A stretch of DNA of 64,000 nucleotides, taken from the NCBI GenBank assembly GCA_964638155.1, contig CAZWYI010000010.1:1305-65304 (forward strand). The letters run 5' to 3'. Shown piece by piece: positions 2,706 to 45,000 of this stretch. The DNA comes from an uncultured Thermoplasmatales archaeon (GTDB lineage Archaea; Thermoplasmatota; E2; DHVEG-1). Both the position numbers and the translations under genes were made by a program. The notes beneath the pieces are model-generated. The model did no database searches and was not told the origin of the DNA. It saw only the letters and a program-made list of their open reading frames with translations. The first letter of the stretch is position 1; each line of letters starts with the position of its first letter.

Positions 2706-3473
2706 ATGCAAAAAGAAGTAAATTCTCTTTATGAAAAAATTAAAGACAAAATAAGCAAAAAAGATTTTCTTGATAAAATTAAATTATTACAAAAAGAATC
2801 AGACGATCTTTTAGACGAATATACAATAGCTCTTTTATTATTAGATGAAATGGGAGAAAACACAAATATTTCCAAAATTTCTGAAATTAAACCAAATCTA
2901 GAGTTTACAATAAAAGGAAAAATAACAGAAATAATTTCTTTAAGAACATTTACCAGAAAAAAAGGATCTCAAGGAAAAGTTGCTAACTTAGAGATAACAG
3001 ATGAAACAGGCTCATGTAACCTAGTCTTATGGGACAATGATGTAAAACTTTTAGAGGAAAAAAAAATTCAAAAAAATACTTTTATAAAAATTATAAACGG
3101 ATATGTAAAAGATGGTTACAATGGAATTGAGATAAATGTTGGTAAATATGGAATGATTGAGATAATAAAAGAAAATTTTGATAAAAATATATCAAAAGAA
3201 GAACAACAAAAAAACTCGATAAAAGGTGAAATTATTTTAATTAAACCAACAAGAGCCTTTTTTAAAAACAGTGGGAAATTTGGTTTTGTTACAGATATTA
3301 AAATAAAAGAAAAAGAGAATGAAAAACAGATAACTGTATGGGATGAAAAAGTAAAAGAGATACAAGATTACAAAATTGGAGATAAAATAAAAATTGAAAA
3401 CATAGATAACAGAAGCAATAAAGGTAAAAAAGAACTGCATTTAAACGGTTCAGCAAAGATTTCTAGGATTTAG
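2706..3473 (+). CDS. rpa: Replication protein A-like ssDNA-binding protein (two OB folds)
   Basis: Two RPA-type OB-fold signatures: KGKITEIISLRTFTRKKGSQGKVANLEITDETGSCNLVLWDNDVKLL and IKGEIILIKPTRAFFKNSGKFGFVTDIKIKE...ITVWDEKVKEI. Confidence 0.65.
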   Translation: MQKEVNSLYEKIKDKISKKDFLDKIKLLQKESDDLLDEYTIALLLLDEMGENTNISKISEIKPNLEFTIKGKITEIISLRTFTRKKGSQGKVANLEITDETGSCNLVLWDNDVKLLEEKKIQKNTFIKIINGYVKDGYNGIEINVGKYGMIEIIKENFDKNISKEEQQKNSIKGEIILIKPTRAFFKNSGKFGFVTDIKIKEKENEKQITVWDEKVKEIQDYKIGDKIKIENIDNRSNKGKKELHLNGSAKISRI

Positions 3474-3799
3474 CAACCGCCTTGAACATATTTTTTATTT
3501 TTTTCAAGAGCAATTTCAGCAAGTTTAATTTCTCTACCAAGATACATATAATGCTCTGGTAAAAGATTTTTAATATGTTTTGATATGGTGTCACATATGG
3601 CATCTGCTTTTTTTCCAACAAATACCTTATTTAAATTTCCAGAAACAATTTTGTTATTTTTGTAAACATTTTTAAAATACTCAACTCTTATCTGATTATC
3701 CTTTTTATCTATTTCAATTACAAAAAAACCATTAGGATCAAGTTTTACATATTTTTCTTGTGTTTTTTCAGCTTTTATTAATGGAACTTCTTTAGACAT
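3470..3799 (-). CDS. DUF4346-like small protein, last gene of the mtrA/mtrH/metE-like operon
   Basis: 109 aa. Start overlaps the upstream MetE-like stop by 8 nt (translational coupling). Sequence (LDPNGFFVIEID...YFKNVYKNNKIVSGNLNKVFVGKKADAICDTISKHI) matches, from memory, the DUF4346 module often fused or adjacent to MtrH-like pterin-binding proteins. Confidence 0.45.
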   Translation of the reverse strand: MSKEVPLIKAEKTQEKYVKLDPNGFFVIEIDKKDNQIRVEYFKNVYKNNKIVSGNLNKVFVGKKADAICDTISKHIKNLLPEHYMYLGREIKLAEIALEKNKKYVQGGC

Positions 3800-4688
3800 T
3801 TATTTTTTCACCTGCTTTTACAAGATTGGTAAGTTTTTGAAATGCATTTTTTTGAGGAAGAGTTCTAAGACCGCAATCAGGTGCGATTTGACTTATTTTT
3901 CCATCAAAAATATCTATTCCCTTTTTTATATGATCAACTATTTCCTCTACTGGTTCAACCTTTTTTATATCAGATCGAACTGAGCCAAGACATATCTCTT
4001 TATCAACTGAATAATTTTTGAATTCATCAAAAAGTTTTGGTCTAATCTTAAACTCATGAGATAAAATATCTACAGGTAAATTTAGAATCTTAGGAATAAC
4101 TTTTCCTACATCTCCACAAATATGCATTCTAACTTTACAGCTAATATTTTTTGTAACAATTTTTACTAATTCTTCAGCGTAATCAGGGTAATCTACAGAA
4201 AAAAATGGCTCATCTATACTGATCATATCAACATATTTTTCTAAGTTTTTTGCTTCTTTTTGTAAAACGTATGCAAAATCAAAAGCTAGTTTTTGTTCAT
4301 CTTTATAATACAGGTCAACACATGATCTAGAAAGAGTATAGGGGCCTGCGATAAGACCTATCAATTTTGTTTTTTTTGGAATTATTTTTTTTACATATTT
4401 TTGATCTTCAACAGTTATCTCACCGTCGTACTCTATTTTTTTTATAATTTCAGGCCGATTTCTAATACGAATCCCTTTTATTTTTCTATAATAAATATTT
4501 ACAAAAGGATCTCTTGTTTGACCATCGGAAATAATATCTATTCCGGCATTTATCATATCCTTTACTGCATTTTTTATATTTTTATTCCAAGATGTAATTT
4601 TTGAGTTATAAAAATTTTTAATAAATTCAAAATTATTTATATTTGTAGGGTAAGAACCAATTACCGAGGTTTCTATTTTTTTATTCAT
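3792..4688 (-). CDS. metE: Archaeal short (core) MetE-like methylcobalamin:homocysteine methyltransferase / methionine synthase family protein
   Basis: 298 aa. N-terminal TSVIGSYPT motif typical of the archaeal MetE C-terminal-domain-only family. UROD/MetE-like TIM barrel length. 8-nt overlaps with both neighbours. Confidence 0.6.
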   Translation of the reverse strand: MNKKIETSVIGSYPTNINNFEFIKNFYNSKITSWNKNIKNAVKDMINAGIDIISDGQTRDPFVNIYYRKIKGIRIRNRPEIIKKIEYDGEITVEDQKYVKKIIPKKTKLIGLIAGPYTLSRSCVDLYYKDEQKLAFDFAYVLQKEAKNLEKYVDMISIDEPFFSVDYPDYAEELVKIVTKNISCKVRMHICGDVGKVIPKILNLPVDILSHEFKIRPKLFDEFKNYSVDKEICLGSVRSDIKKVEPVEEIVDHIKKGIDIFDGKISQIAPDCGLRTLPQKNAFQKLTNLVKAGEKINV

Positions 4689-5589
4689 TTAAATAAAATT
4701 TCCTCCTAGGGTGAGAAATATCTGGTTTTATTCCAAAATAGGTATCTGTATATTCAGAAATAAGTATATCCTGCCACGTAATTATTGGTAAAACATATTT
4801 TGCATTTTCAACAGGGCCAAATATTGCAAAATCACCGCCGAATAAAGAAATATTAATGTTTGATGCTGAATCAACACTTTGTTTTGCTAGTTTAAAATCT
4901 TTTAGCCAAGTTGACTTTTCTACTACGTTATGAATAGCACAACCTGTTGGATAACCATATTCTTCCTTTATAACAGGTATTACAGCAATTGACGCGCCGC
5001 TGTAATCACCTGGTGCCATTGCAGCAGTATCTATTAGTATTTTTTTAATACCCGTTTTTTTTGTAATATCTAAAAGACCTGTTTCTTTTAAGTGAGCGCT
5101 ATTTTCAAGTACCTCAATTTTACCATCAGGTGATTTATCCTTTGGGTTGAAAGCAACAATTATTGCCATCTCTGGGGTGTTTTTCTTCAAACAATTTATT
5201 TCTTCTTCTGTTGAACCTATATGAATAGAATTGTATATTGTTCTATCTAGCAAATTGTTTTCTTTTAAAATGTTAAGTGTCTTTATCTTTAGTTCAGGCT
5301 CTATTATATCTACGGAAAAAGGATATTTTTCTGGAAGATTATCTATGATAAATTCAACTATTTCTTCTATATATTCTTCTTTTTTTATAAAAAAATCTGG
5401 AATTGCAGGATTTCCAAGTTTTTTACTTAGGTTTAGCATATCTTCTAAGTTTTTCTTTGCAATTTTGAACTTAGGTTTTCCTTTGAAAAAAAACCCGCCA
5501 AAAAGAACCGTTGGGTTTTTACCAGGTTGTCCACCGATTTTAATATCTTTAATATTGTAGATTTTTTGTTTTTTTGTAAATGAAAACAT
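4681..5589 (-). CDS. mtrH: MtrH-like pterin-binding methyltransferase (tetrahydromethanopterin/tetrahydrofolate:corrinoid methyltransferase subunit H homolog)
   Basis: N-terminus MFSFTKKQKIYNIKDIKIGGQPGKNPTVLFGG closely follows the MtrH N-terminal signature (MFKFDK.Q.V.EI.GVKFGGQPGE.PTVL). 302 aa. Confidence 0.65.
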   Translation of the reverse strand: MFSFTKKQKIYNIKDIKIGGQPGKNPTVLFGGFFFKGKPKFKIAKKNLEDMLNLSKKLGNPAIPDFFIKKEEYIEEIVEFIIDNLPEKYPFSVDIIEPELKIKTLNILKENNLLDRTIYNSIHIGSTEEEINCLKKNTPEMAIIVAFNPKDKSPDGKIEVLENSAHLKETGLLDITKKTGIKKILIDTAAMAPGDYSGASIAVIPVIKEEYGYPTGCAIHNVVEKSTWLKDFKLAKQSVDSASNINISLFGGDFAIFGPVENAKYVLPIITWQDILISEYTDTYFGIKPDISHPRRKFYLNE

Positions 5590-6156
5590 TTATTTTCCTC
5601 TTTTTTTTATTTTACCTAAATAATTTATAACTATTTTTGAATGAAGCGCTCTTTTGTCATCAATAGTTGTTTTTTCTTGTTTAATTTTTATTGCAATATA
5701 CGTTTTACCAAAGGGTTTAACATCTTTATTTAAACATTCTTGGATTTCATTTTCTATTACTTTATTTTTTCTTTCATTTATTAAATCGATTATTTCAATT
5801 TGATTTCGAAAGCGATCTACTGCTTTTTTATCAAGATTTTCAATATATGGTATCGCGCCAGGTGCATCAATGATTCTTTTCTCTTTATCTATACCATTTT
5901 TATTTAAAGATAATAAAGATGCTCCAGATCTATGGCCTCTAATCTCATTACCACATACTATTATAAACCTTATATTAGGATTTGATATAGTGTTTGCCAC
6001 AATTTTTTCTATTCCAATGTTTTCTGTTTTTAATGGTCCGTATATCGCTACTTTTTGTGAAGGAGTATAATCGATATTTAGAAGTACTAATGCAACCGGG
6101 CTTGCACTATCTATTTCTGTAAATTCTCCGCCCCATGGATAGTATTTTTCTTTCAT
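5590..6156 (-). CDS. mtrA: MtrA-like corrinoid-binding protein (soluble, no C-terminal membrane anchor)
   Basis: [45 protein letters not shown] matches the MtrA cobamide-binding core (..C.[30 protein letters not shown]..G). 188 aa, ends at nt 5590 directly abutting mtrH-like. Confidence 0.6.
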   Translation of the reverse strand: [188 protein letters not shown]

Positions 6157-6215
6157 ATTCTGTATCTAGTATAATAAAAACCGTTTATAATAGTTTTAAT
6201 GTACCCTACCACAGT

Positions 6216-6226
6216 TTTATAAATAG
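6216..6226 (+). promoter_or_regulatory. Candidate archaeal TATA box (TTTATAAATAG) for radA, ~35 nt upstream of the ATG
   Basis: AT-rich TATA-like octamer at the distance from the start codon expected for short archaeal 5' UTRs. Divergent from the mtr-like operon. Confidence 0.3.
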
Positions 6227-6258
6227 ATAGTTGTTTCCCTTGGATTAGGGTATTTTTT

Positions 6259-7212
6259 ATGAGTAAAGAAACTGACTTTGATAAGATAAATAAAATTCCT
6301 GGTGTTGGGCCAGCTACAGCCGAAAAATTACAAGCCTCAGGTTTTCTTGATGTTATGAGCATAGCTGTTGCTTCTCCATCAGAGCTTGCTGATGCCGCTG
6401 AAATCGGTGATGCTACAGCCTCTAAGATTATACTTAAGGCCAGACAAGAAGCAGACCTTGGAAAATTCGAAACAGGTAGTTCTATTTTAGAAAAAAGATT
6501 AAAAATTGGACATTTAACAAGTGGTTCTAAAACATTTGATGAACTTGTAGGTGGTGGATTTGAATCACAAGCCATAATAGAATTATTTGGTGAATTTGGT
6601 TCTGGTAAAACGCAAGTTGCCCATCAACTTTGTGTAGATGTTCAATTACCTAAAGATAAAGGTGGTATGGATGCGCATGCTTTTTATATTGATACAGAAA
6701 ATACATTCAGACCAGAAAGAATTGTTCAAATGGCTGAAGCAAAAGGGCTTGACCCTGATAAAATTCTAAAAAATATTCATGTGGCTCGCGCATATAACTC
6801 TAGTCATCAGATGCTTCTCGTGGATAAATTAAAAGAGCTTTCAAAAGAAATAAAATCACGATTGCTAGTAGTTGATTCTCTTACCGCACATTTTCGTGCT
6901 GAATATGTTGGACGAGGCGCTTTAGCAGATAGGCAACAAAAACTAAACAAACATATGCATGATTTATTGCGTTGGAGTGACCTTAATAATGGAGTAGTAT
7001 GTGTTACAAACCAAGTATCTGCTAAACCAGATGCTTTCTTTGGAGATCCAACACGGCCAATTGGAGGGCACATTGTTGGACACACCGCTACATTTAGGAT
7101 ATATCTACGTAAAAGTAAAGGACCAAAACGAATCGCAAGACTAATTGATTCACCTCACTTACCTGAAGGAGAAGCAGTATTTACCATAACTAGCGAAGGA
7201 ATTAGTGATTAA
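6259..7212 (+). CDS. radA: DNA repair and recombination protein RadA
   Basis: N-terminal HhH ([15 protein letters not shown]), Walker [15 protein letters not shown], Walker B LLVVDSL, full RecA/Rad51-family core. 317 aa. Confidence 0.95.
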
Positions 7213-8775: not shown

Positions 8776-9957
8776 ATGAAAGAACAAACAGAATTTTTAG
8801 AACGAGAATATAAAGAGTTAGAAAAGAAAGGTTATACTTGGACTATTAGAAGCCTACTAGGCCCTTCTAAACCACATGTAAATGTTGAAGGAAAAGAATG
8901 CATAATGCTTGCATCAAATAACTATCTAAATCTTGCAAATCACCCTAAACTTAAAAAAGCAGCTTTAGAGGCAGTAGAAAAATATGGTGCAGGAGCTGGT
9001 TCTGATTGGTCTATAGCAGGAAACATGGATATTCATATTGATTTACATGAAAAAATAGCTAATTTTAAAAATACTGAGTCGGCTGTAACTTTTCAAACAG
9101 GTTTTGCAGTGAATTCTGGAGTTATTCCACAACTTGCAGGAAAAGGAGATATTCTAATTTCTGATGAGTTAAACCACGGAAGTATCATTGATGGTGTACG
9201 ACTTACAAAGGCAGATAGAGGGATATATTCTCATTCTGATATGAGTGAACTAGAAAAGGTTTTAAAAGATGCTAGTAAAAAAGATTACAGAAGAGCAATA
9301 GTGATCACCGATGGAGTATTCAGTATGGATGGAGATATTGCCAAGATGGATGAAATCTACAAAATAGCCAATGAATATGGTGCGATGACCTATGTTGATG
9401 ATGCTCATGGAGAAGGAGTACTTGGAGATGGATACGGCATTGGTAAAGAGTTTGATTTAGAAAAAGAAATTGATTTTCAGATGGGTACTTTTTCAAAAGC
9501 TTTTGGAAGTTTTGGAGGAATGCTAGCTGGAAGTAAATATTTAACAAAATATGCATTTAATACTGCTAGAACCTGGCTTTTAAGTGCTGCTTTTCCACCA
9601 CATGTTGCTGCATCAAACATTGCAGCGTTAGAAGTAATTGAAGAAGAACCTGAAAGAATAAAAAAACTCTGGGATAATACAAAATACTTCAAAAAAGAAA
9701 TTGAAAGTCTAGGTTTTGATACAGGTAACTCTCAGACACCAATTATACCCGCTATGATAGGTGATAGTAAGAAAGCACAGGAACTAGCTAATAGAATGTA
9801 CGAGGAAGGTATTTTTGCCCTTGCTATTGTATTTCCAATGGTAGCTCGTGATAAAGCAAGAATTAGAAATCAGATGAATGCAGGCATGACTAGAGAGGAT
9901 TTAGATCAAATATTAAGGGTATATGAAAAACTTGGAAAAGAATTAAAACTAATTTAA
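8776..9957 (+). CDS. kbl: PLP-dependent class-II aminotransferase family acyltransferase (2-amino-3-ketobutyrate CoA ligase Kbl / 8-amino-7-oxononanoate synthase family)
   Basis: 393 aa. Kbl-like N-terminus (EFLEREYKELEKKGYTWTIRSL), PLP-lysine region GTFSKAFGSFGG. SD-like GGGAGG upstream. Confidence 0.8.
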   Translation: MKEQTEFLEREYKELEKKGYTWTIRSLLGPSKPHVNVEGKECIMLASNNYLNLANHPKLKKAALEAVEKYGAGAGSDWSIAGNMDIHIDLHEKIANFKNTESAVTFQTGFAVNSGVIPQLAGKGDILISDELNHGSIIDGVRLTKADRGIYSHSDMSELEKVLKDASKKDYRRAIVITDGVFSMDGDIAKMDEIYKIANEYGAMTYVDDAHGEGVLGDGYGIGKEFDLEKEIDFQMGTFSKAFGSFGGMLAGSKYLTKYAFNTARTWLLSAAFPPHVAASNIAALEVIEEEPERIKKLWDNTKYFKKEIESLGFDTGNSQTPIIPAMIGDSKKAQELANRMYEEGIFALAIVFPMVARDKARIRNQMNAGMTREDLDQILRVYEKLGKELKLI

Positions 9958-15147: not shown

Positions 15148-16452
15148 CTAATCTATTTGAAAATAATCATATCCTCGGAATCCTTCCTTAAAACAATAAT
15201 GTAAATTTTGGAAGTTTTTTCTAAATTCCTTTATCTCTCCTTTAATCTTTTTTGTATCCTGATTTTCTAATAGTACTTTTTTATAGAATTCTGCTATTTC
15301 ATCCATTTCATGATCTTTCATTCCAATCCTAGTTAATTCAGGTGTGCCTAATCTTAAACCTGATGGATTTAAAGGATCTTTATCGCCGGGTATAGTATTC
15401 ATATTTGTAATAATTCCTGCTTGTTCTAATTTTTCTGATGCTTCTTTTCCTTTTCCAGGACCAATAGATAATAATATTTGATGCGATTCAGTGAAGCCTA
15501 GTTTTTCCCCAAATACCTTAAAACCTCTTTCATGAAGTGCTTGAGCTAATGCTTTAGCATTTTTTATTGTCTGCTTTGCATATTCTTTTCCGAATTCTAA
15601 ATGTTCTGCAAAGGTAATTGCTTTAGCTGCTACATGATGTAAATGATAAGATGATGTAACACCAGGGAAGACGCCGAAACCAAGCCTCATCAAAAACTTT
15701 TTATCTTCTTCGGTTTCACCCTTATGATCTGATAGAACCATACCGCCTTGTGGCCCAGGCAGAGTTTTATGAGTGCTTCCATTCATAACGTCAGCCCCCT
15801 CTTTTAGAGGATTTTGAAATTCTCCTCCTGCTATTAAGCCGAGTACGTGTGCTGCATCATATATTAAATGTGCTCCAACATCATGTGCTGCTTCTGCAAG
15901 TTCTTTAACTGGGCTTGGAAATAAAAAAACTGATCTCCCATTCAAACATAGTTTTGGCTTAATTTTTTTAATTAATTTAACAGCACCATCTATATCAATA
16001 TTCATCTCTTCATCGTTAAAAGGGTAGGATACAAGGTTAATGCCACGTACTCCTGCACCACCCCATTTGCCAAAACTTATATGTGCTCCATTTGCTAAAT
16101 CCAATACTACTGCTGTTTCACCTGGTTTTATTAAAGCTTTTAAAACCCCTATATTTGCTGTAGTTCCAGCAGTGGGTCTAATATCTGCATATTCACATTT
16201 AAAAAGTTTTTTTGCAAGCTCCATTCCTTTTAACTCAACGTTATCAAAAAATTTACAGCCTTGATAATATCTATTCCCTGGTGTGCCTTCTGCATATCTT
16301 CCATGAAAATCAGATAATAGCATTTCTCTACATAATGGAGATAGAACATTTTCGCTAGCTATCATAGGTATAGATTCAGCAAATAATTTATTATTTAACC
16401 TTGCCTGTTTTCTAACATATTCTGCTTCTTTTAACCAACTCATAAGACTCAC
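15148..16452 (-). CDS. glyA: Serine hydroxymethyltransferase
   Basis: PLP-lysine signature GSTHKTLPGPQGG. Full-length 434 aa. Confidence 0.9.
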   Translation of the reverse strand: MSLMSWLKEAEYVRKQARLNNKLFAESIPMIASENVLSPLCREMLLSDFHGRYAEGTPGNRYYQGCKFFDNVELKGMELAKKLFKCEYADIRPTAGTTANIGVLKALIKPGETAVVLDLANGAHISFGKWGGAGVRGINLVSYPFNDEEMNIDIDGAVKLIKKIKPKLCLNGRSVFLFPSPVKELAEAAHDVGAHLIYDAAHVLGLIAGGEFQNPLKEGADVMNGSTHKTLPGPQGGMVLSDHKGETEEDKKFLMRLGFGVFPGVTSSYHLHHVAAKAITFAEHLEFGKEYAKQTIKNAKALAQALHERGFKVFGEKLGFTESHQILLSIGPGKGKEASEKLEQAGIITNMNTIPGDKDPLNPSGLRLGTPELTRIGMKDHEMDEIAEFYKKVLLENQDTKKIKGEIKEFRKNFQNLHYCFKEGFRGYDYFQID

Positions 16453-33454: not shown

Positions 33455-33527
33455 TGGGCTAGACCGGAATTGAACCGGTGACCTCCGCGTTGTAAGCGCG
33501 ACGTCATAACCCCTAGACCACTAGCCC
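33455..33527 (-). tRNA. tRNA-Val (anticodon UAC)
   Basis: Hand-folded. 7-bp acceptor GGGCUAG/CUAGCCC. Anticodon arm UCGCG-CUUACAA-CGCGG with U33 and A37. T arm ACCGG-UUCAAUU-CCGGU. Discriminator A, CCA not encoded. Confidence 0.85.
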
Positions 33528-33658
33528 GAAGTACTTAGCATGGAATATAATAGTTGTTTTAGTAATTTACTATGTAAAAAATAAAACTGTGTAGTCCTAA
33601 AATTATTTCCCATCCTCAAAAATAATGAGAAAAACTTAGCGTTTACCTTGAGATAATA

Positions 33659-33680
33659 ACCCCTAGACCACTAGCCCTTA
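33659..33680 (-). repeat. 22-nt exact direct repeat of the 5' end of tRNA-Val (GGGCTAGTGGTCTAGGGGTTAT), 131 bp from the tRNA 5' end
   Basis: The string ataacccctagaccactagccc occurs at 33506-33527 (inside the tRNA) and again at 33659-33680. Flanks diverge immediately. Confidence 0.6.
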
Positions 33681-33730
33681 TATCAAGGGGAAATACAATC
33701 TATGTTATTAATTTACTCTAATGAAATCGA

Positions 33731-34684
33731 TTAATTTAATTCAAAAATTTTACATATATTTTTTAGCTTACTATAAAGCAAATTTTTAAATTTTCTGTAT
33801 TCTTCACTATCGATATCAATTAAAATAAGACGGGAAATATCATCATCTGAATTTCCAAAAACTCCTTTATTTAACAAACTACAATTATTTTGTAAATTCT
33901 CTCTTGCAACTTGAGAAATCAAAAAACTACTTTTGATTTTTCTAGATATTAAAATATTATCCATCTTTAAAATATCTTTTTTAGATTTATTGATAAGATA
34001 CAAATCAAAAACATCTCGTTCTTTAAGTTTTTCTCTAGTGAGAATAGCGCGATATTTCTCAAGTACTACTTCATTTATTGGATATGTTTTAGTTTCAATA
34101 TTTCGTAAATCATAACCAATAGATTTCAGATAAAGATCTTTACCAACGATATTATTTATTTTAGATTTAGAATAATTATTGATGATTTTTTCTAAAAAAT
34201 TTATCTCAATTTTAATTGGAATTTCCTCATCTGTAATTAAGGATTTATAATATATATTTAGTATATATACCGCTCTTGAATTTCTTAAATTAATGTACTT
34301 AGGATTTTTTCTATCGGTTTTAAAATCAAATTTTGCGATATCACATATTGATTTTATTTCTTTAATAAGTAAAATAACTGCCTTTTTTATTTCTTTCTCT
34401 CTTTTATTAACACTTTTAATTAAACGAAAATCATTACATTTATCATATGTAAAATCAATATCTTCACTAATTCTTGGATAATTTAAAAAATTTCTAATCA
34501 GTAATGTTCCGCCTTTAAAAATTAGATTATTTAGACTACGAATGTTTCCAGCGACATTTTGTTTTTGCCAAGTGGAGAGAAATAACGATATAAAATAGTC
34601 TTTTTCAATATAGTAATCATCAATATTTGATCCTTTTTTATTTTTAACATAGGACAGATATTTATTAAAATTTGTTCTATTCAT
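33731..34684 (-). CDS. abiEii: AbiEii/AbiGii-family nucleotidyltransferase toxin (type IV TA)
   Basis: FKGGTLLIRNFLNYPRISEDIDF matches the KGGTAL...R.SeDIDF NTase motif of DUF1814/AbiEii. 317 aa. 4-nt overlap with the upstream gene. Confidence 0.65.
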   Translation of the reverse strand: MNRTNFNKYLSYVKNKKGSNIDDYYIEKDYFISLFLSTWQKQNVAGNIRSLNNLIFKGGTLLIRNFLNYPRISEDIDFTYDKCNDFRLIKSVNKREKEIKKAVILLIKEIKSICDIAKFDFKTDRKNPKYINLRNSRAVYILNIYYKSLITDEEIPIKIEINFLEKIINNYSKSKINNIVGKDLYLKSIGYDLRNIETKTYPINEVVLEKYRAILTREKLKERDVFDLYLINKSKKDILKMDNILISRKIKSSFLISQVARENLQNNCSLLNKGVFGNSDDDISRLILIDIDSEEYRKFKNLLYSKLKNICKIFELN

Positions 34685-35298
34685 AAATAAAATACCTTCT
34701 TTTTAAAATTCTTTGAATAGTTTTTAAGATACAATTTCAATTTTTGTTTTTTCGTAAACTTGGATAATTTTATTGGAGGTATCTTTTTTAGATAAATAAA
34801 ATCAAGGTATGTTTTTTCAGGATTTGAGTAGTAAAAAGTAATTCTATTCTTGGTAGTTTTTTTTATATATCCAAAATCGATTTTATCTCTTTTTATTTTA
34901 CAAAACCTATATCTAATTCCTAGTATTTTTCTTTCACCAGATATTTCAGAATTAATAATTATTGGATTAACAATACCCTGCCACAAAATATTATTTCTTT
35001 CAAGAGCACTATATAGGCCAAGATACCATCTAATATTTAATTTATTAAGAATTGCATAAAGCATTTCATTTGTGGAATAATTTGTATAATCTCCCTTTTT
35101 TTCTTCTATACTTAATATATAGTAATAACCTTTGAAGACATATATAGTGTCTTTATTTCTTCTAAGGTTAACAATAATATTTTCGGTATATTTGTCTTGC
35201 AATACATCTCTAAGTACTTTTTCCAATTGTCTTTTAGATATAAGTTTATCATTAATTGAATCTAAGATATTCCTTATAATCCTTTTATCAATTTTCAT
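34681..35298 (-). CDS. abiEi: Putative AbiEi-like antitoxin/transcription regulator (partner of AbiEii)
   Basis: 205 aa, immediately upstream of and overlapping abiEii, the size and position expected for AbiEi. No strong motif recognised by eye. Confidence 0.45.
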   Translation of the reverse strand: MKIDKRIIRNILDSINDKLISKRQLEKVLRDVLQDKYTENIIVNLRRNKDTIYVFKGYYYILSIEEKKGDYTNYSTNEMLYAILNKLNIRWYLGLYSALERNNILWQGIVNPIIINSEISGERKILGIRYRFCKIKRDKIDFGYIKKTTKNRITFYYSNPEKTYLDFIYLKKIPPIKLSKFTKKQKLKLYLKNYSKNFKKKVFYL

Positions 35299-35462: not shown

Positions 35463-38400
35463 TTATTTTTTCTTTTTTGATTTTGTTGATTTTTTACTTG
35501 ATTTTTTTGTATCTTTTGTTGGGGTTTTATTTTTTCCTTTTGGTATTTTTTCTTTTTCTTCTTCGATATAGAGATAACCTGTTTTAAACATTATAAAAAT
35601 CACTAAGATAATTACTATAATTATTGTAATAATTATTAATGCCCATACTGGAAAGCCTTTGTCTTCTTTAATATAAACTTCTGTTTCATCTGAGGAAGGA
35701 TTATAAGTATAATCCCATTCTCCATCACCATCTGTATCTATTAGATAGTTACCATCTTCGTATTTTACTTTTACATTATCATTTTCTGAACTGTATATTT
35801 TATCATATATTCCGTCTTTATTTGTATCAACTAGATAATAAGTTATTCCATCAATTACTGGTATTTCTTTTACATCTGTAGGATCATCTGGGTCTGAACC
35901 AAGTTCAGTTTCTATTTCATCATCTATATTATCCCCGTCGTTATCTGAGTCACCTGCATATTTTCCATCAGGTGAAGGATCATCAGGTACTCCGTTTCCA
36001 TCTGTATCCTTTGGTTTATCTGTATCATCATTGATGTCAGTTTCATATGATTCTTCTATTTCATCACTCCATCCGTCAGCATCTGTGTCAAGTGTGATAT
36101 TTGCAGTTGTAATATTAGTATCAGTTAGGCCATCACTATCAGTTACTGTTAAAGTTACATTAAACAAACCTGATTGATTATAAATATGAACAGGGTTTTC
36201 TCCATAACCAAAGGTTTCATCGCCAAAGTCCCAGGTATAGTTTTCTATACCATCACCTGTGGTTGCATCTGGATCTATACTTTCTGATCCGTCAAAAGTA
36301 ATGTTTTCAAAGGTTAATGCTTCATATGGACCTCCTGCATCAGCTGTTGGTTTGTAAGTTGGAGTTGATTGCTCAGAGATATTTACTTCTGCAGTAGCAG
36401 TAGCAGTATCTGAATCATCATCTGTGACAGTTAAAGTTACTGTATATTCTCCTTCTTCACTATAAGTATGTGTAACTGTTTCACCTGTTCCAGTTGAATC
36501 ATCACCAAAATCCCATGAATAACTATATGGCTCTGTTCCATCTGATGCTGAACCTGTGAATTCAACAGAAGAACCAACTGTTCCAGAGTAAGGACCATTT
36601 GCATCAGCTGTAAATGTCGGGCTTGGAGGAATAACTGTACCTCCATTTCCTCCGCCACCTTGATTATTAACAGTGATATCAGCAGTATTTGTAGTATAAC
36701 CTGTTTTTACAGCGGTAACTGTTTTAGGTCCAGTTGAGGAAACAGAAGGAGCATCTAAGGTTACTTCTCCATTTAAATCAGTTGTTCCACTATCGCCGCT
36801 GACACTAACTGTTACACCTTGAACTGGAATATTCCCTCTTGAGGTAACTGTAACATCAAATTGATTGTTTTCTGTTACACTATTTGGAAGTGAAAGTGAT
36901 AAGAAATTATAAGCAATTAATGGATACAAATCTTGAGTGCTACCACCGCTTATATTGTATGGTGTATCACCTATGCCATCACCGTTAGAATCAGTTCCTG
37001 TATAGTTTCCCCAATAATTCCCCTCATTAATATTTGTGTTATACCACGTGTTGTTACTGCAATTATCATAAGAGCTTATATTGTTGTTATATATCTTATT
37101 GTGATACAACGTATTATTTTCAGAAAAGGCATCATAAAAGGTAGTCAGATTAAAACCATATTCGCTGTAAGATATATTATTTTCAATTATTAGGTTGCCA
37201 CTTGAACCTTTAAGTAGAATACCCCACGAGCTTTCTGCTGGGTTGGTGTTATTGTTATTATAGAATTCATTTGAAGAAATAGTGTTATTATTAGAAGATG
37301 GGGCTAAAGAAATTCCTCCACTGTCACAAGAAGATACGTTGTTATCTGTAATTGTGTTAAAATCTGCATAGCTTAAATCAAAGCCATTTGCATAAGGCCC
37401 TAAAGCATTATAACTCATATTGTAAATTGTGTTGTTTGAAATTGTACAATATGTAGAATTAGTAATTTTCATACCTGGTCCTGATTGCAACCTAGTAGAT
37501 TGAGAGACAGCACAATTACTAATGTTAATAAAACTACAGTGACTGCTATTATCGCTTTGGCTGAACCATTCAATCATTCCTAGAGCTATACCACCATGTG
37601 ATGAATTTTCAATGTTACATCCTACTATGTTACAGTTTGTTGCGTTGTCAAAAGCAATACCGATAGTACAGTTATAAATGGTAATATTTGTTATGTTAAT
37701 ATTACTAATATCCAAAGGGTTAGAAGAGTTATAAACATATATTCCTACAGCATAATCAGGTAATGCTTTGATACAATTTCTTATAGTAATATCTTTTATG
37801 TTAACGTTACTTGTAGTTATATTAATTCCAAATCCATAATTACCATCTAAAATTGCCAATTCAGTTCCATCAATTGTTATACTTTTATCAACGAGAAGAT
37901 TTTCATAATAGGTTCCATTATAAACAAAAACAGATCCATCTGCAGAAACTGCATTTATACCTTCTTGAATGGTATCAAAGTGATCAACGTTCCAGCCGGG
38001 TGTTGAACTTGTGTAATCATCATCCACCCATACAAAAGTAGGTGGTGTTGTACGTTTGTTTGTTAAGGGATATACGTCCTGATTGCTACCAGATGCAATA
38101 TCATACGGTGTATCACCTATGCCATCACCATCAGAATCAGTTCCCGCGTAGTCTCCCCAATAGTTACCCTGGAAAATAGTTGTATTGTACCAATCGTTAT
38201 TACTACAGCGGTCAAAGGAGTTATTTAGCGAATTATTATAAACATTATTGAAATAAATTGTATTATTTTCTGAACAAACTGATAACCAAGATGAAACATA
38301 GATACCTTCATCATTGTAATACACATTATTTCTAGTGATTGTATTATTGTCTGATGCTAAAACACAAATACCATATGCCATAGCATTCGTATTGTTATAG

Positions 38401-40394
38401 ATATTATTTGACTCAATGTTATTATTACTTGAATTCAAAATATGGATACCTGTTTGATCATATTGAGTAATGGTATTATTCATGATCATACAATTAGTAG
38501 AATTTGTTAATTGTATAGCCTCACCAGTCGGACCAGCAGAAGAATTATAAGTCGAGTTTATCAATTGATTGTTTGATATATTGCAGTTTTCAGATTCGAG
38601 GATATACATACCCATCCGCTCTATTGAATAAATCATATTATTTGTAAAGTTTGAATTTGTTATATTGTAATACATAAATGCCAACCATGAATTATTTGAT
38701 ATATTGCTATTTACAACATTTACAATAGATGAATCTCTAGCATATATGCCTATACTACTGTTTTTTATATGAACATTATTCAATGTCACATTTTGAATAG
38801 AGGTCGTAGAATTATAAATAAAAATTCCTGCGGTATTTTCACCAGTACAGTTGCTAATAGTAAGATTTAGAATTGTAACATTACTTACAGTTATATTCAT
38901 TCCATTATTGTACTGCCCATCTAATGTGACCGATGTATTAGCATTAAGAGTTACAGAGTTGTCAATAATTAAATTCTCAGTATATGTTCCATCCCAAACA
39001 TAGACTATGCCATTACTTGTTACATTATCTATTCCTTCTTGGATGGTTCTAACATGTGTTTCATCATACCAGGATGAATCAGCGTTGTCATCAACATATA
39101 CAATAGTAGGTTGCTGTACATCAACAGTATATGGGCCATAAACCTTAGAATTACTTGATGTGTCATTTATTTGAATAGAATAAGTCATATCAATAGAACT
39201 ACTATCCAAAGTTATTGTCCCAAGCCAATATCCATTATTAAGAGTTAGATTTGCATTACCTGAAAATGTATTATGAGACCATGAAACATTGACTCCGGAG
39301 ACACCAATATTATCTGATGCAGAAATGTTGAAAGTAAAACTTTCACTTGCATTACCCGTTGAAGGGGTATTATCACTAACTAGAGAAGGATCAATGATAT
39401 CATCTACCTCCAATGGAGAACCGGTAACAGTTTCATTCCAGTTATTGCTGGTATCATTTGCTGATATGTTATAATAAAAATAAGTTGCAGTAGTTGAGAT
39501 AATTGAAATGTTATACCAATACTTGCTTGTAATTGAACTAAAGTTCATAGAATAGTTATCCCAAGAGCCAGTATAATTAGAATTCAGATAAACATTTGAA
39601 ACAGCTATATTATCTGTGACATTTACAGTGAAGTTATAACTATCGCCTGTTGTTGGGTTAGTGCTGAGTATATCACTAAATTCTGGTGGATCATTATCTG
39701 TAACATTTACTGTATAAATTGACGAGTTTACAACATGCCCTGAGGTATCATTTACCCATATTTGATATGTCAAATCACTAATATTATGTGCAAGTCTAAT
39801 ATTTCCATTAAAATAATCAAAAACTGAATTATTTAATGTTAGATTACCAGACGAACCAGCATGGACCCAAGAAACATTAACAGTTAATTCTTGAGGTGAA
39901 TCAACATAATCAATTACAGTTGAATTAAAGTAGTATAAATCACCTGTTGTTGCATTTGATCTATTTGTGTTATCTGTAAGTTGAGGTTGATCAACGATTG
40001 TTAAATTATAAAAGGAGCTTTGATCAGGATAATTATCATTTCCATTTATAAAAACTGAGTCATTTGTTGTGTTTTCATTACCTATAAACCAAAATATCGG
40101 GCAATCCTGATATATATCATCATCAGGTCTTATTTCGATGTAATAATTTTTATTCACAAGGGAATTATTTACTACAGTAGATTGATTATGCCAAAATCTT
40201 GAACCATCATCTCCTGTTTTTAAAACACAAGCAGTAATCATGGTTCCATCTTCGATTAGTTTATTAGGCTCATTATCATCTGTTGCATAACCATAGTAAT
40301 AATGGACTGAAGCAGCAGATACGCAAATTGTAATAAGTATCAAAAAAATAAATGATACTAGCAAAAACATTATTCCTCTTTTTAATAATTCCAT
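35463..40394 (-). CDS. Giant (1643 aa) exported surface protein: two parallel beta-helix modules, two PKD domains, thrombospondin-type-3/dockerin-like Ca-binding repeats, C-terminal TM anchor + Lys-rich tail
   Basis: Signal/TM. PbH1 repeats (NVTLNNVHIKNSSIGIYARDSSIVNVVNSNISNN). PKD signature YSWDFGDDSTGTGETVTHTY and WDFGDETFGYGENPVHIY. DTDADGWSDE / DTDGNGVPDD repeats. TM WALIIITIIIVIILVIFIMF then KK-rich tail. Confidence 0.7.
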   Translation of the reverse strand: MELLKRGIMFLLVSFIFLILITICVSAASVHYYYGYATDDNEPNKLIEDGTMITACVLKTGDDGSRFWHNQSTVVNNSLVNKNYYIEIRPDDDIYQDCPIFWFIGNENTTNDSVFINGNDNYPDQSSFYNLTIVDQPQLTDNTNRSNATTGDLYYFNSTVIDYVDSPQELTVNVSWVHAGSSGNLTLNNSVFDYFNGNIRLAHNISDLTYQIWVNDTSGHVVNSSIYTVNVTDNDPPEFSDILSTNPTTGDSYNFTVNVTDNIAVSNVYLNSNYTGSWDNYSMNFSSITSKYWYNISIISTTATYFYYNISANDTSNNWNETVTGSPLEVDDIIDPSLVSDNTPSTGNASESFTFNISASDNIGVSGVNVSWSHNTFSGNANLTLNNGYWLGTITLDSSSIDMTYSIQINDTSSNSKVYGPYTVDVQQPTIVYVDDNADSSWYDETHVRTIQEGIDNVTSNGIVYVWDGTYTENLIIDNSVTLNANTSVTLDGQYNNGMNITVSNVTILNLTISNCTGENTAGIFIYNSTTSIQNVTLNNVHIKNSSIGIYARDSSIVNVVNSNISNNSWLAFMYYNITNSNFTNNMIYSIERMGMYILESENCNISNNQLINSTYNSSAGPTGEAIQLTNSTNCMIMNNTITQYDQTGIHILNSSNNNIESNNIYNNTNAMAYGICVLASDNNTITRNNVYYNDEGIYVSSWLSVCSENNTIYFNNVYNNSLNNSFDRCSNNDWYNTTIFQGNYWGDYAGTDSDGDGIGDTPYDIASGSNQDVYPLTNKRTTPPTFVWVDDDYTSSTPGWNVDHFDTIQEGINAVSADGSVFVYNGTYYENLLVDKSITIDGTELAILDGNYGFGINITTSNVNIKDITIRNCIKALPDYAVGIYVYNSSNPLDISNINITNITIYNCTIGIAFDNATNCNIVGCNIENSSHGGIALGMIEWFSQSDNSSHCSFINISNCAVSQSTRLQSGPGMKITNSTYCTISNNTIYNMSYNALGPYANGFDLSYADFNTITDNNVSSCDSGGISLAPSSNNNTISSNEFYNNNNTNPAESSWGILLKGSSGNLIIENNISYSEYGFNLTTFYDAFSENNTLYHNKIYNNNISSYDNCSNNTWYNTNINEGNYWGNYTGTDSNGDGIGDTPYNISGGSTQDLYPLIAYNFLSLSLPNSVTENNQFDVTVTSRGNIPVQGVTVSVSGDSGTTDLNGEVTLDAPSVSSTGPKTVTAVKTGYTTNTADITVNNQGGGGNGGTVIPPSPTFTADANGPYSGTVGSSVEFTGSASDGTEPYSYSWDFGDDSTGTGETVTHTYSEEGEYTVTLTVTDDDSDTATATAEVNISEQSTPTYKPTADAGGPYEALTFENITFDGSESIDPDATTGDGIENYTWDFGDETFGYGENPVHIYNQSGLFNVTLTVTDSDGLTDTNITTANITLDTDADGWSDEIEESYETDINDDTDKPKDTDGNGVPDDPSPDGKYAGDSDNDGDNIDDEIETELGSDPDDPTDVKEIPVIDGITYYLVDTNKDGIYDKIYSSENDNVKVKYEDGNYLIDTDGDGEWDYTYNPSSDETEVYIKEDKGFPVWALIIITIIIVIILVIFIMFKTGYLYIEEEKEKIPKGKNKTPTKDTKKSSKKSTKSKKKK

Positions 40395-40407
40395 TTGTTT
40401 TTCCTCC

Positions 40408-41937
40408 CTATTTTAATTTCCATTTTATTATCAACCCTAAAAAAATAATTATAAATAAAGAAATTATGCCCATAATTAATATAAGATTATTTGGCTGTGA
40501 TTTTGTTTCTTTTATATATTCGCTAAATTCTCCAGATAGACTATTATACTTGTATTCATATTTATTGTCATTATTTGAGTTTATTAAATAAAAACCATTT
40601 TCCAGAATAAGATCCGTAACATATCCTTTAGTTCTATTGTAATATCTATCTAATTTTCCGTCACCATCGATATCTATAAGATAAAATAAACCAAATTCAT
40701 TTAAAATTCTAATAACATCTTCTGGATTAGTAACATTGGTACCCAATTTATTTTCTATAACATCACTTAAACCATCATTGTCATCATCAGCATCCCATTC
40801 ATCAGGGATTCCATCGCCATCGAAATCTGAAGGAAAATCATCTGGATCAAATGGATCTGTACCATAATATTGTTCTGCCTCATCACTCCAACCGTCATTA
40901 TCAGAATCATCAGATGTAACATTTACTTGTGTTTCAATAGAATTGCTTGTTCCATTATTATCAATGACTTTTAATATAACGATAAATTGCCCTACATTTG
41001 AATAAATATGATCAGTTGTAACATCATTTGTTTTAACACCTGTTCCATCGCCAAAGTCCCAAACATATTCAATTATATATCCATCTGAGTCAGTACTATC
41101 TGAGGCATCGAAAGTAACAGTCTCATTTGTTTTGCTATAATATGGTCCTCCTGCATTTGCAACTGGTGGTATATTTTCAATGTTTTCATCTGAGGGAGGA
41201 GGAGCAGGAATAAAATCATTACTCGGGGGGGTAGTACTTCCTCCGTTTCCACCATTGCCACCATTTTGAGTGTCACTTTTAGTCTTAAATTTATAATAAT
41301 TGGAAGAATTATCATCTATACCAGTATTTCCAGATATATCAAAAGACGAAACCTCAAAATAATACGTAGTGTCAGTATTTAAATCAGAAATAATTATATT
41401 ATGATTTTTTACATAAGAAGAGTCTTTTTTAGTATTTAGAGGAGGAACTGAACTACCATAATTTACTATAGAATTAGATTTCTCATTAGTTATCCAAGTG
41501 ATACTTGCCTGAGTTTTACTAACCGATGAAACAGATACTTCGCTTATGACCGGGGAAGTAGTATCAAAAGATAAATTAAAAAACAATGAATAATCTACAT
41601 TTTCACCACCTGCCTGAAATTTTGCTGTTTTACCAGTTAAGGTGTCATTTATATAAAAATAGATAGTTTTATCAGCATCGCTATTAGACCCCTTTATAGG
41701 AAAACCTTCTGTTATTGGCACATATCCATAGGCCCCATCTTTGATAGGGGTTGTAAAAATTTTAGACCCCAGTTTTGCTGTAACGGTACCATTCTGAATA
41801 AGTTCACCATTTTTATCAAAAACATATCCATAGAAATAATGTGGAAGAACTGGAATGTCATCTCCATTTATAGTTGGAACTAATAACAAAGATAAAATGA
41901 ATGTAGTTAATATCATACTCGTAAGTACTTTTTGCAT
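40408..41937 (-). CDS. Exported surface protein (509 aa): FN3-like + PKD domain + Ca-binding Asp-rich repeats + C-terminal TM anchor
   Basis: Signal peptide. TSPVISEVSVSSVSKTQASITW (FN3-like). YVWDFGDGTGVKTNDVTTDHIY (PKD). DSDNDGWSDEAEQYYGTDPFDPDD. C-terminal TM LILIMGIISLFIIIFLGLII. Confidence 0.6.
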   Translation of the reverse strand: MQKVLTSMILTTFILSLLLVPTINGDDIPVLPHYFYGYVFDKNGELIQNGTVTAKLGSKIFTTPIKDGAYGYVPITEGFPIKGSNSDADKTIYFYINDTLTGKTAKFQAGGENVDYSLFFNLSFDTTSPVISEVSVSSVSKTQASITWITNEKSNSIVNYGSSVPPLNTKKDSSYVKNHNIIISDLNTDTTYYFEVSSFDISGNTGIDDNSSNYYKFKTKSDTQNGGNGGNGGSTTPPSNDFIPAPPPSDENIENIPPVANAGGPYYSKTNETVTFDASDSTDSDGYIIEYVWDFGDGTGVKTNDVTTDHIYSNVGQFIVILKVIDNNGTSNSIETQVNVTSDDSDNDGWSDEAEQYYGTDPFDPDDFPSDFDGDGIPDEWDADDDNDGLSDVIENKLGTNVTNPEDVIRILNEFGLFYLIDIDGDGKLDRYYNRTKGYVTDLILENGFYLINSNNDNKYEYKYNSLSGEFSEYIKETKSQPNNLILIMGIISLFIIIFLGLIIKWKLK

Positions 41938-42005
41938 ATATCTCCTGTGATTACCCCCTTGAAAATAGTAATAAGATATAAAAGAAAGGGAGAATTTTTT
42001 TAAAT

Positions 42006-45000
42006 TTAGCTTGGTGTATACGTTTTATCTCCACTACTCTCTTTCCACAGCCAATAGCCTTTACCAGGTTCCATATCCTGTGAACTTATGAGAATATTTG
42101 TATATCCTCCACCTACATTATACCTCCATACTGAACTTACATCAGAATCTGATAAACTTGCTAGCGCACCTCCATAGCTTGTCGAAGCAGATTGATTGTA
42201 GGTTTGCCATTGACCGATTAAATTCCATGATTCTCCTTTCAATGTATGATAAGGCATACTATATCCCGGATCTGGGAAAAGATCAAAATTACCCTCCAGA
42301 ATTTGAGCCGTTCCAACATTTAACCAATAACCTTCTCCACCAGTCAAATTCCAATGGTCTGTAGAGGTATCATCATATCCTTGAGTTGAGTGATAAGATT
42401 GCCAATCATCTATTGTTGCGTTATATCTATAAATACGCCAATTTCCAGTTAATCCTGCTAATACAGAGGTTAGAGTTTCCGATGAAACATCACATGGGAA
42501 TGATATTAGATTTAATCCAGATGAAAGACTGATTCTAAACGTTTTTATTATTTTTGTACCAGACGTAATAGTATTTCCTGCTAGATCTGCAATTGAACCA
42601 GCTATTCCAATTGTAGGCGAATCACCAGTCTGAAATGTTGTATCAAATCTAATGGTAGTTCTGTTACCACTTGTTGATTGAATTGCTGCAGGATTTACGT
42701 TGCTTAAGCTAATATTAAAATCAGTATAATCAATAGTAGAATTATCCATATATAATTCATTGAAATGTACATCTACATATGTATGATCTGTTCCATCATT
42801 ATCTGAATCAAGTACTGCATAATTCAATGTAGGTGCTGTATTATCAGCAATTATCGTATCACTCCCAGTATTGTTATAGTTACCAAAATCATCAGTTACA
42901 TTAATTGTCACAGTAACCGTATAATCACCACTACCTGAAACAGTACGTTCCCACCATGCATGAGTATCATTATGTCCAGAAGCATTATCAGAAGTAGTTC
43001 CACCAAGACCACTTAAATCAGCCTTAAATAGACTATTTGCACTACTTGAATCAAGAGTTGCATCTGAATAGGTGATAGTAACATTCACTGTATCAGTATC
43101 TTTTACATAACTAGTACTACTAATTGTTGTATCAGTTATAGTTACAGAAGTAACTAGTGGATCTCCTTCATCAAAAGTAAACGAATCATTAACTGTTGAT
43201 CCAACATTTGTTAGATTATCTGTAGACTTTGCATAGACTTTATATTGATTTCCATCTACCCAAGTAATCGTAGACGTGTCAAGAGTCCAAGTACTATATC
43301 CTGTTGCATTATTCCAGTTATCTGCATCTGTCCAAGCTGTACCAGTCCAATTTGTATTATCTGTCATATTATAGATCTTAACTTCAGTCTTGTTTATTCC
43401 AACACCTGAACCATCATTGGAAGTACCAGTGATCTCAGTTAAAGAAGTTACATAATCAGAAATATCATCAATTGTAGCTGTTGGACCTGAGTTATCTACC
43501 TTTTTATCATTATTTGTGTTACTTTTAGCAGATAGGGAAACGTTGTCAGTTGCGGTAATTGTTACAGTAAATGTACCATTATTATTTGCAGGCATTGTTA
43601 AATTATAATACCATTCAAGATTATTTGTTTTATTCATATCTTGATCGGTAATATCAGAATCACCATCATTATATGCAACTGAAATTTTTACAGGTTCAGT
43701 TATACCAGATCCAGTTTCAGTGAAATTAGCAAAAACTTTTAACAAATCGTTTTCTTTGAAATATGTAGCAGTTTTATTATACTGTATTTCACAAACCGGT
43801 GCTGTGTTATCAATAGTTTTTGTTGAATTAGTCCCAGAGACAGATTGAGATACATTATCAGAAGCATTCACATATACAGTTACATCACAGTTTTCACCAC
43901 TCTGTACATGCCAGTCAAAGTAGTAATGAGTATTATCATCTTTTTCCATGCTTTCACTTGAATTCAACCAACTACTACCCGTACTATTTTCAATAGACAA
44001 TTCAACTGTAGACTCATCTATGCCAGATCCATCTTCTGTAAAGTTTGCAAATACTCTAACTGTATCTCCATATATAACATATGTCGCTTTATTCATCTCT
44101 ACGGTAACAGTTGGAGCTGTTGTATCAAGTGTGAAATTTATATATTTTTGAGTACTTGTTCTAGATGCATTATCTGTAGTTGTAGCATTGACTAAATATG
44201 ATACAGCATCCTGCCAAGTAACACTACTAGAATCATATGTCCAAAGTGTATTTCCTTCAGAAAGTGAAGTTGTAAGCCAGGTTTTACCATCCGCCCATGC
44301 AGCATTATCCCAGTATTTTCCTGAAGAAGTGTTATAAATTGTTATGTTTACTTCTTTAACACCAGAATAACCTGAGTCACTGCAGTTACCTTCTATAGAG
44401 CTGACATCAGCATAATAGGTATGGTTAACAGGTAAAGTGATATTCACAAAAGGATTTGTGTCATCATATCCACAAATAGCATCTGCACTACCTGGAGCAA
44501 TTTCTTCATTTGAAGCATTATCTGTAGCTATAGAATAAAACTGATAATATCCTGCATCACTTGGAAAATCAAAATTCCAAGTCACTGGACTATAAGGTGT
44601 TGTATCGGGATTATTTGCACCACTCCATTTAGTCCAAACACTACTGACCCAAGAAGTATTATCATTTGTATATCTATAATATAGTGTAACATTATTTAAT
44701 CCGCTTCCAGCATCAGAAGCAACATATGTAATTGAAACAGTACTACTAGTCTGCCAGTATGTTGATATGTCAGTTACTTCAGATGAGAGATCATTTGTAT
44801 CGTAACTAAAAGTATGACTTGTTTCAGATCCTATATTTCCAGCATAATCAGTAGCTGACGCATTTATTGTATAGTTGGTACCATTGAAAAATGTTGGAAA
44901 AGCAGTACTATCTTCATAATACCAATTTTTAGTCCAACTAGAACCAGTGATATTTGCTGTAAGATTAGTTTCAACACCCCAAGCTAGTCCTGCCCAATAA

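Follow-up and report, generated by a model that had tools for sequence, protein, structure and literature searches.

Which methyl donor serves the core methionine synthase of archaea has been an open question since 1999, with an answer predicted from co-occurrence only, and the role of MtrA and MtrH in non-methanogenic archaea has been called unclear (PMC9635834, 10.1101/2020.03.09.984617, PMC11291895). Both questions are raised by four adjacent genes in a 64,000-nucleotide (nt) stretch of DNA (the window) from an uncultured Thermoplasmatales archaeon (E2; DHVEG-1; assembly GCA_964638155.1, contig CAZWYI010000010.1, positions 1,305-65,304). The genes encode a soluble MtrA-like corrinoid protein, an MtrH-like methyltransferase, a core-MetE protein of the MesA type and a DUF4346 protein (Table 1). 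The comparisons described below indicate that the four genes are one operon and not a chance arrangement, and that this operon probably encodes a soluble, cobamide-dependent methionine synthase built of separate proteins.

Table 1. Genes of the operon and the spacer upstream of it, with positions in the window.
Feature	Position	Strand	Length	Remarks
MtrA-like corrinoid (cobamide-binding) protein, soluble	5590-6156	-	188 aa	operon gene 1; PF04208
MtrH-like methyl-pterin:corrinoid methyltransferase (predicted)	4681-5589	-	302 aa	PF02007
MesA-type core-MetE (predicted methylcorrinoid:homocysteine methyltransferase)	3792-4688	-	298 aa	PF01717
PterinBD-DUF4346 protein, stand-alone	3470-3799	-	109 aa	last gene; PF14251
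Divergent intergenic region toward radA, AT-rich	6157-6258		102 nt	presumed operon promoter; TATA-like elements

Organisation and conservation of the operon

The initial annotation, made from the sequence alone, had described four minus-strand genes with junctions of 0, 8 and 8 nt and had taken them to be translationally coupled. The open reading frame (ORF) coordinates agree with this layout, the coupling is retained as its reading, and the peptide strings quoted at the time are all present in the ORFs. At the first junction, the TAA stop codon of the mtrA-like gene directly abuts the ATG of the mtrH-like gene. The mtrH-like and mesA-type genes overlap by 8 nt (ATGAATAA), as do the mesA-type and DUF4346 genes (ATGTCTAA). 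The three internal starts are preceded, at a distance of 7-13 nt, by the Shine-Dalgarno-like sequences GAGG, AGGAGG and AGGTGA. In the spacer upstream of the mtrA-like ATG, the TATA-like elements TTTATAAA and TTTTATTATA are located, and the spacer is presumed to hold the operon promoter.

When one genome for each GTDB species was scanned with an alignment, 80 loci were obtained, all from Thermoplasmatota metagenome-assembled genomes (MAGs), including SG8-52-3, SM1-50, M9B1D and M11B2D, the genomes that define the Thermoprofundales, or MBG-D (marine benthic group D). The gene order is identical, with 68 loci complete, nine cut by contig ends and three disrupted. Across these roughly 80 species, the MtrA/MtrH junction measures 0-9 nt, the MtrH/MesA junction mostly -4 or -1 nt and the MesA/DUF4346 junction -8 or -11 nt, and the orthologs share 48-76% identity with the window proteins. 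A scan of metagenomes, with divergent MtrA-like proteins of the soluble type as the anchor, added 27 Thermoprofundales-like cassettes. The same order MtrA-MtrH-MesA-DUF4346 is present in a second archaeal clade of four loci (L087, L090, L091 and L094), with 36-49% identity to the window proteins, different neighbouring genes and a G+C content of 47-56% (around 30% in the window). It is because the identical order and the equally tight junctions recur in 68 of the 80 genomes and in this divergent clade that we regard the arrangement as non-random. No MesA gene was found at 11 other MtrA loci with enough flanking DNA, each either a canonical mtr operon or an mtrA paralogue standing alone.

The apparent exceptions to synteny were considered as natural variants and rejected as such. 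One (L020) is an assembly gap, visible as a run of N, and the other three are insertions between mtrA and mtrH: a 360-residue Cys-rich ORF in L033 (2500-5100), a 693-residue secreted protein in L038 (2700-5100) and a 514-residue integrase-like gene in the metagenomic locus L092 (5570-7200). The mtrH, mesA and DUF4346 genes are contiguous in the first two of these; in L092 they were not found within 5 kb downstream. The mtrA/mtrH junction may be an insertion hot spot, hit by three independent insertions.

The host is a Thermoprofundales/MBG-D-like, non-methanogenic archaeon of the Thermoplasmatota. Members of this lineage have been described as peptide degraders that are not methanogens (PMC6461988), in line with the setting outside methanogenesis that had been proposed at first. 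The accompanying claim that the window holds no other mtr genes and no mcr genes also stands: Pfam scans of the 51 other window ORFs found no mtrB-G, mcr, cdh/acs or cobamide genes. These ORFs are housekeeping and surface-protein genes only, for example radA, cdc6, and the genes for primase, eIF2-alpha, serine hydroxymethyltransferase and NAD kinase.

The MtrA-like corrinoid protein

The four families named in the initial annotation (MtrA PF04208, MtrH PF02007, MetE-C PF01717 and DUF4346) are all matched far above the Pfam cut-offs. For the MtrA-like protein the match to PF04208 has an E-value of 7.7e-52, and the protein also exceeds the cut-off of NF002126, an NCBIfam subfamily model (169.5 against 161 bits). 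When it is aligned to MtrA (PDB entry 5laa), H75 corresponds to His84, the cobalt ligand, and E45 and I102 correspond to Glu54 and Ile111, which form a hydrogen-bond relay in MtrA (PMC4915002). E45, H75 and I102 are invariant in 67 orthologs. The protein is shorter than canonical, membrane-anchored MtrA, which has 230-260 residues, and no transmembrane helix was found in it, the maximum 19-residue hydropathy being 0.89 as compared to more than 2.3 in canonical MtrA. It thus lacks the C-terminal membrane anchor that MtrA has in the Mtr complex, and MtrB-G are absent both from the window and from the orthologous loci.

The MtrH-like protein and its pterin

The MtrH-like protein is a full-length barrel, matching PF02007 over residues 6-282 with an E-value of 3.9e-59. 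D94 and N221 do not vary among 66 orthologs, and we take them to be the conserved pterin-site Asp and Asn of MeTr and MetH; N221 aligns with the Asn that has been replaced in the deposited MtgA variant 6sjp.

The initial annotation had proposed a methyl relay from a pterin to homocysteine. The relay itself gains from the conserved cassette and the invariant residues found here, while its methyl-pterin is probably a folate (5-methyl-tetrahydrofolate or a folate analogue) rather than methyl-tetrahydromethanopterin (methyl-H4MPT), since the lineage carries folate-type enzymes. In the Thermoprofundales MAGs, folate-type one-carbon (C1) enzymes were reported in all and fragments of the H4MPT pathway in one, without Cdh/Acs (PMC6461988). 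As Cdh/Acs is lacking in these MAGs, a corrinoid iron-sulfur protein would not be available as the donor (PMC6461988).

Less than 10 kb from the cassette, genes are present for serine hydroxymethyltransferase (15148-16452, minus strand) and for a class I/II aminotransferase (8776-9957, plus strand), which by its sequence appears to be of the 2-amino-3-ketobutyrate ligase type. Either enzyme might supply the pterin pool with C1 units.

The MesA-type core-MetE protein

The MesA-type protein consists of a single domain that matches PF01717 (Meth_synt_2) over residues 6-294 of 298 (E-value 8.6e-33); the Pfam search did not find the N-terminal folate domain of MetE. Its best NCBIfam model is NF002119, a methionine synthase equivalog model with a cut-off of 258 bits, which we take to correspond to MesA and which served as a proxy for similarity to reference MesA. 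On this model the Thermoprofundales orthologs score 220-251 bits and the proteins of the second clade 234-270 bits, two of them above the cut-off. The zinc ligands H189, C191, E212 and C272 and the homocysteine-binding residues S12, Q57 and D159 show no variation across 78 orthologs and match the positions listed for MesA (PMC7857596). Glu484 of MetE is replaced by a Gln, which is typical of MesA and MesC.

MesA of Methanothermobacter uses methylcobalamin in vitro and not methyl-pterins, and the very high Km for methylcobalamin points to a corrinoid protein as the true donor (PMC7857596; PMC7005905). MtrA has been predicted to be this donor, with MesA reported in methanogens only (Price et al. 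2021, PMC7857596), and Price and Arkin described the co-occurrence of MesA with MtrA and their adjacency in "a few genomes" (PMC11378808). As cited in PMC7005905, MtrH had been put forward as a possible partner by Schroeder and Thauer as early as 1999.

The DUF4346 protein and its fusions to MtrA

The DUF4346 protein matches PF14251 over profile positions 1-85 of 86 (E-value 1.3e-21, 77.6 bits, cut-off 29.6). On the fusion model NF002128 (MtrA+DUF4346, 390 residues) it aligns to positions 277-368, and the MtrA-like protein to positions 120-272. An exhaustive HMMER search with an E-value threshold of 0.001 or below gave 633 MtrA-like cluster representatives, and the best 150 were inspected. In 50 of these 150, DUF4346 follows the MtrA domain immediately within a fused protein, and nearly all retain the His that ligates cobalt. 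Because of the fusions, we assign DUF4346 as an accessory of the soluble MtrA-like corrinoid module and not of MetE. The listing of DUF4346 as a partner in the cassette was correct as to family, with the correction that its partner would be the MtrA-like domain.

In the AlphaFold2 model, with a predicted local distance difference test (pLDDT) score of 80, the DUF4346 protein contains a sheet of three long strands packed on two helices. No fold or sequence match to it was found in the PDB, and a literature search for DUF4346 returned no paper. D21, E40, H83, R89, E90, Q106 and the carboxy-terminal C109 are invariant among the orthologs. This last residue, which ends the sequence QGGC, was considered as a functional thiol and rejected, as it is clade-specific: the fusion proteins and the second clade end in Y-x-Q-D/E. 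One may speculate that DUF4346 caps the corrinoid module or serves to dock it.

Fused MtrA+DUF4346 proteins were also considered as neighbours of MtrH and MesA. This was not so in the three contexts examined, where they adjoin ArsR-type regulators and metal transporters. A large family of 370-410 residues combines a Cys-rich amino-terminal extension with the MtrA domain and DUF4346; members are known from Deltaproteobacteria, WOR-3, Anaerolineae and archaeal MAGs. The extension contains six invariant cysteines, in the pattern KCxxCGC ... YDCLGCxxCxPA (alignment A4). All three members examined (P0415, P0402 and P0500; L082-L086) begin within or just after an ArsR/HTH_5 gene. Their neighbours are transporter genes of the P-type ATPase, cation-efflux or MacB/FtsX kind, and neither MtrH nor MesA is found close by. 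The family looks like an unexplored protein of the corrinoid iron-sulfur type, tied to metals or metalloids. In five of the 150 representatives, of which three were checked, MtrA+DUF4346 is fused to a thymidylate-synthase-like domain, and a further fusion involves dCTP deaminase. A fusion of MtrA to a TusA domain, without DUF4346, is weak and falls under the Pfam cut-off. These cases are the representatives P0259, P0290, P0310, P0303 and P0288. The ThyA-like and dCTP deaminase fusions hint at a cobamide-dependent methylation of pyrimidines or at another use of the module.

A candidate split methionine synthase

In the proposed mechanism, the MtrH-like TIM-barrel enzyme would move the methyl group from the methyl-pterin to a Co(I) cobamide, bound in the His-on state by the MtrA-like protein. 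The MtrA-like protein, now carrying methyl-Co(III), would then dock on the MesA-type core-MetE, where homocysteine activated by the zinc site would accept the methyl group, giving methionine and regenerating Co(I). DUF4346 would aid the corrinoid module, possibly by docking or capping, and would not itself be a catalytic methyltransferase. It is likely that this relay is, in function, a split and non-homologous analogue of MetH, which would provide a physiological role for "MtrAH" in these non-methanogens. It draws its support from the conservation of gene order and of the catalytic and ligand residues over about 80 species and the second clade, and it fits the use of methylcobalamin, and not of methyl-pterins, by MesA in vitro.

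Several observations weigh against the proposal. The window MesA-type protein scores just under the NF002119 cut-off, with 243 bits against 258. The pterin is not assignable by sequence, the MtrH-like protein being equally close to M. mazei MtrH (9qtp, 146.8 bits) and to MtgA (6sj8, 143.9 bits), which uses tetrahydrofolate. MtrA+DUF4346 fusions occur in unrelated contexts (ArsR with metal efflux; ThyA-like domain fusions), and the corrinoid module alone is therefore no sign of methionine synthesis. Finally, neither the cassette nor the window contains a gene for a corrinoid reductive activase, a ferredoxin partner, or cobamide synthesis or uptake. The synthase had at first been called self-contained. 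Its four components are confirmed, and this attribute is unproven, with neither reductive activation nor cobamide supply encoded nearby.

Alternative functions

Instead of homocysteine, the cassette might methylate another thiol, such as coenzyme M (CoM), with the MesA-like protein in the part of MtaA. Such a role, as methyl-tetrahydrofolate:CoM methyltransferase, has been proposed for soluble MtrAH of Lake Pavin Methanomassiliicoccales, a related order (Speth and Orphan, PMC6147122). The MesA-like protein does bear a weak likeness to the URO-D/MtaA family, scoring 21 bits on PF01208, which is under the cut-off, and 36.7 bits on the MtaA model NF040654; its match to methionine synthase is far stronger, with 243-270 bits on NF002119 against 37 for MtaA, and the amino-acid-binding residues are conserved. 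For CoM in particular, the host lineage has no Mcr and hence no known use for methyl-CoM. We consider methylation of another thiol unlikely.

Operation of the same proteins in the catabolic direction appears improbable as well. Here the MesA-like protein would take a methyl group from a methylthio compound, such as methionine or methylmercaptopropionate, and load it on the corrinoid, and the MtrH-like protein would hand it on to tetrahydrofolate, to be oxidised. MtgA, a member of the MtrH family, works from corrinoid to folate in glycine betaine demethylation, and mtrH of non-methanogens often lies beside substrate:corrinoid methyltransferases (PMC4632066). Methionine should be abundant for hosts that degrade peptides (PMC6461988), and the window contains a gene for a C25 peptidase (479-2557). 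The conserved amino-acid-binding residues, on the other hand, exclude substrates without an amino group. Thermodynamics and the absence of a MetE-family precedent also disfavour this direction: by the thermochemistry of the MetH and MetE reactions, moving a methyl group off an unactivated thioether and onto Co(I) is highly unfavourable, and to our knowledge no characterised MetE-family enzyme works as a demethylase.

That the genes are a decaying remnant of methanogenic Mtr, or that they lie together by chance and share no function, is very improbable: MtrAH outside methanogens has been called a "remnant" of ancestral methanogenesis (PMC9635834), but the order, the tight junctions and the catalytic residues are kept over about 80 species and in a second clade at 36-49% identity, the MtrA-like protein is a soluble form and not a truncated membrane form, and disruptions are rare and caused by insertions.

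Comparison with known systems

The split methionine synthase proposed here may be compared with MesA of methanogens (Schroeder and Thauer 1999; PMC7857596), with which the core-MetE protein shares the single Meth_synt_2 domain of about 300 residues, the zinc ligands, the Ser/Gln/Asp set, the best-matching model NF002119 and a predicted MtrA corrinoid protein as donor. In methanogens, the presumed donor is the membrane Mtr complex and MesA has no dedicated operon, whereas here a non-methanogen has an operon dedicated to it, in which MesA is accompanied by a soluble MtrA, an MtrH of its own and DUF4346. With MetH, the cassette has in common a pterin-binding barrel, a His-on B12 module, a zinc homocysteine barrel and the overall chemistry, and MtrH is distantly related to the folate module of MetH (PMC4632066). 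Unlike in MetH, each module is a protein of its own, the module for B12 has the MtrA fold and that for homocysteine is of the MetE type, neither being homologous to its counterpart in MetH, and no S-adenosylmethionine reactivation module is recognisable.

Soluble MtrA paralogues paired with MtrH paralogues outside mtrEDCBAFGH are also known from the Methanosarcinales, with their MtxXAH operon, and from methanogens that have cytoplasmic MtrA homologues (Harms and Thauer 1997; Wagner et al. 2016, PMC4915002; PMC12978539). The cassette contains MesA and DUF4346 instead of MtxX and holds no gene beyond its four, and its host is not a methanogen. In the MtgABC glycine betaine system of Desulfitobacterium (MtgA, 6sj8), an MtrH-family enzyme likewise exchanges a methyl group between tetrahydrofolate and a corrinoid protein, but MtgC is a classical B12-binding-domain protein, the system works in the direction of demethylation and there is no MetE-type partner. 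Another core-MetE system resembles the cassette in being fed by a corrinoid protein and not by a methyl-pterin, while its core-MetE family and its corrinoid protein differ.

For MtrAH of non-methanogens, feeding of the Wood-Ljungdahl pathway has been proposed, as has methylation of CoM (PMC6147122). In the literature searched, no description was found of the four-gene cassette in non-methanogens, of a role for DUF4346 or of methionine synthesis in Thermoprofundales. The link between MesA and MtrA is already known as a prediction, made in 2021 and 2024 (Price et al.); what the present comparisons add is strong support for it, its extension to non-methanogens and two further components.

Features around the operon

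The cassette is flanked downstream by a gene for a 255-residue OB-fold protein (2706-3473, plus strand), which is convergent with the DUF4346 gene and overlaps its stop codon by 4 nt. The OB-fold gene is found next to the cassette in most Thermoprofundales species and the divergent radA gene (6259-7212, plus strand) in many; neither was seen at the second-clade loci. A 140-residue ORF (6153-6575, minus strand) runs antisense to radA and overlaps the start of the mtrA-like gene. It is almost certainly spurious, a low-complexity translation of the radA antisense strand. Rfam gives a single tRNA for the window and no riboswitch near the cassette.

Two giant predicted surface proteins of 1643 and 1940 residues are encoded at 35463-47828 on the minus strand, with PKD, beta-helix/NosD and Ig-like domains. 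Together with the aforementioned C25 peptidase, which is secreted, of the gingipain type and encoded on the plus strand, they fit the extracellular protein-degrading lifestyle reported for MBG-D. The tRNA gene adjoins a gene for an AbiEii toxin (33731-34684), which is overlapped by a 205-residue ORF upstream of it (region 33455-35298), and a tyrosine integrase gene is located near the end of the window (62994-63887). Both regions are possible integrated elements.

Implications

The operon, present in at least two archaeal clades, links the question of the donor of the archaeal core methionine synthase to that of the role of MtrAH, and it offers a minimal set of proteins for direct reconstitution. 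More tentatively, and with some doubt, MtrA+DUF4346 could be a widespread modular methyl-cobamide carrier, plugged into MesA, into the ThyA-like and dCTP deaminase fusions and into the Cys-rich, ArsR-linked forms; "MtrAH" outside methanogens might then mark unrecognised soluble B12 methyl-transfer systems, with the cassette as a full non-homologous replacement of MetH and DUF4346 as a new corrinoid cap or docking domain. Matches to mtrA and mtrH in sediment metagenomes should not be counted as markers of methanogenesis. If the proposed function is true, one of the most abundant groups of benthic archaea would make methionine in a cobamide-dependent way, with cobamides presumably acquired from the community, and genes known from methanogenesis would have a job outside methanogens.

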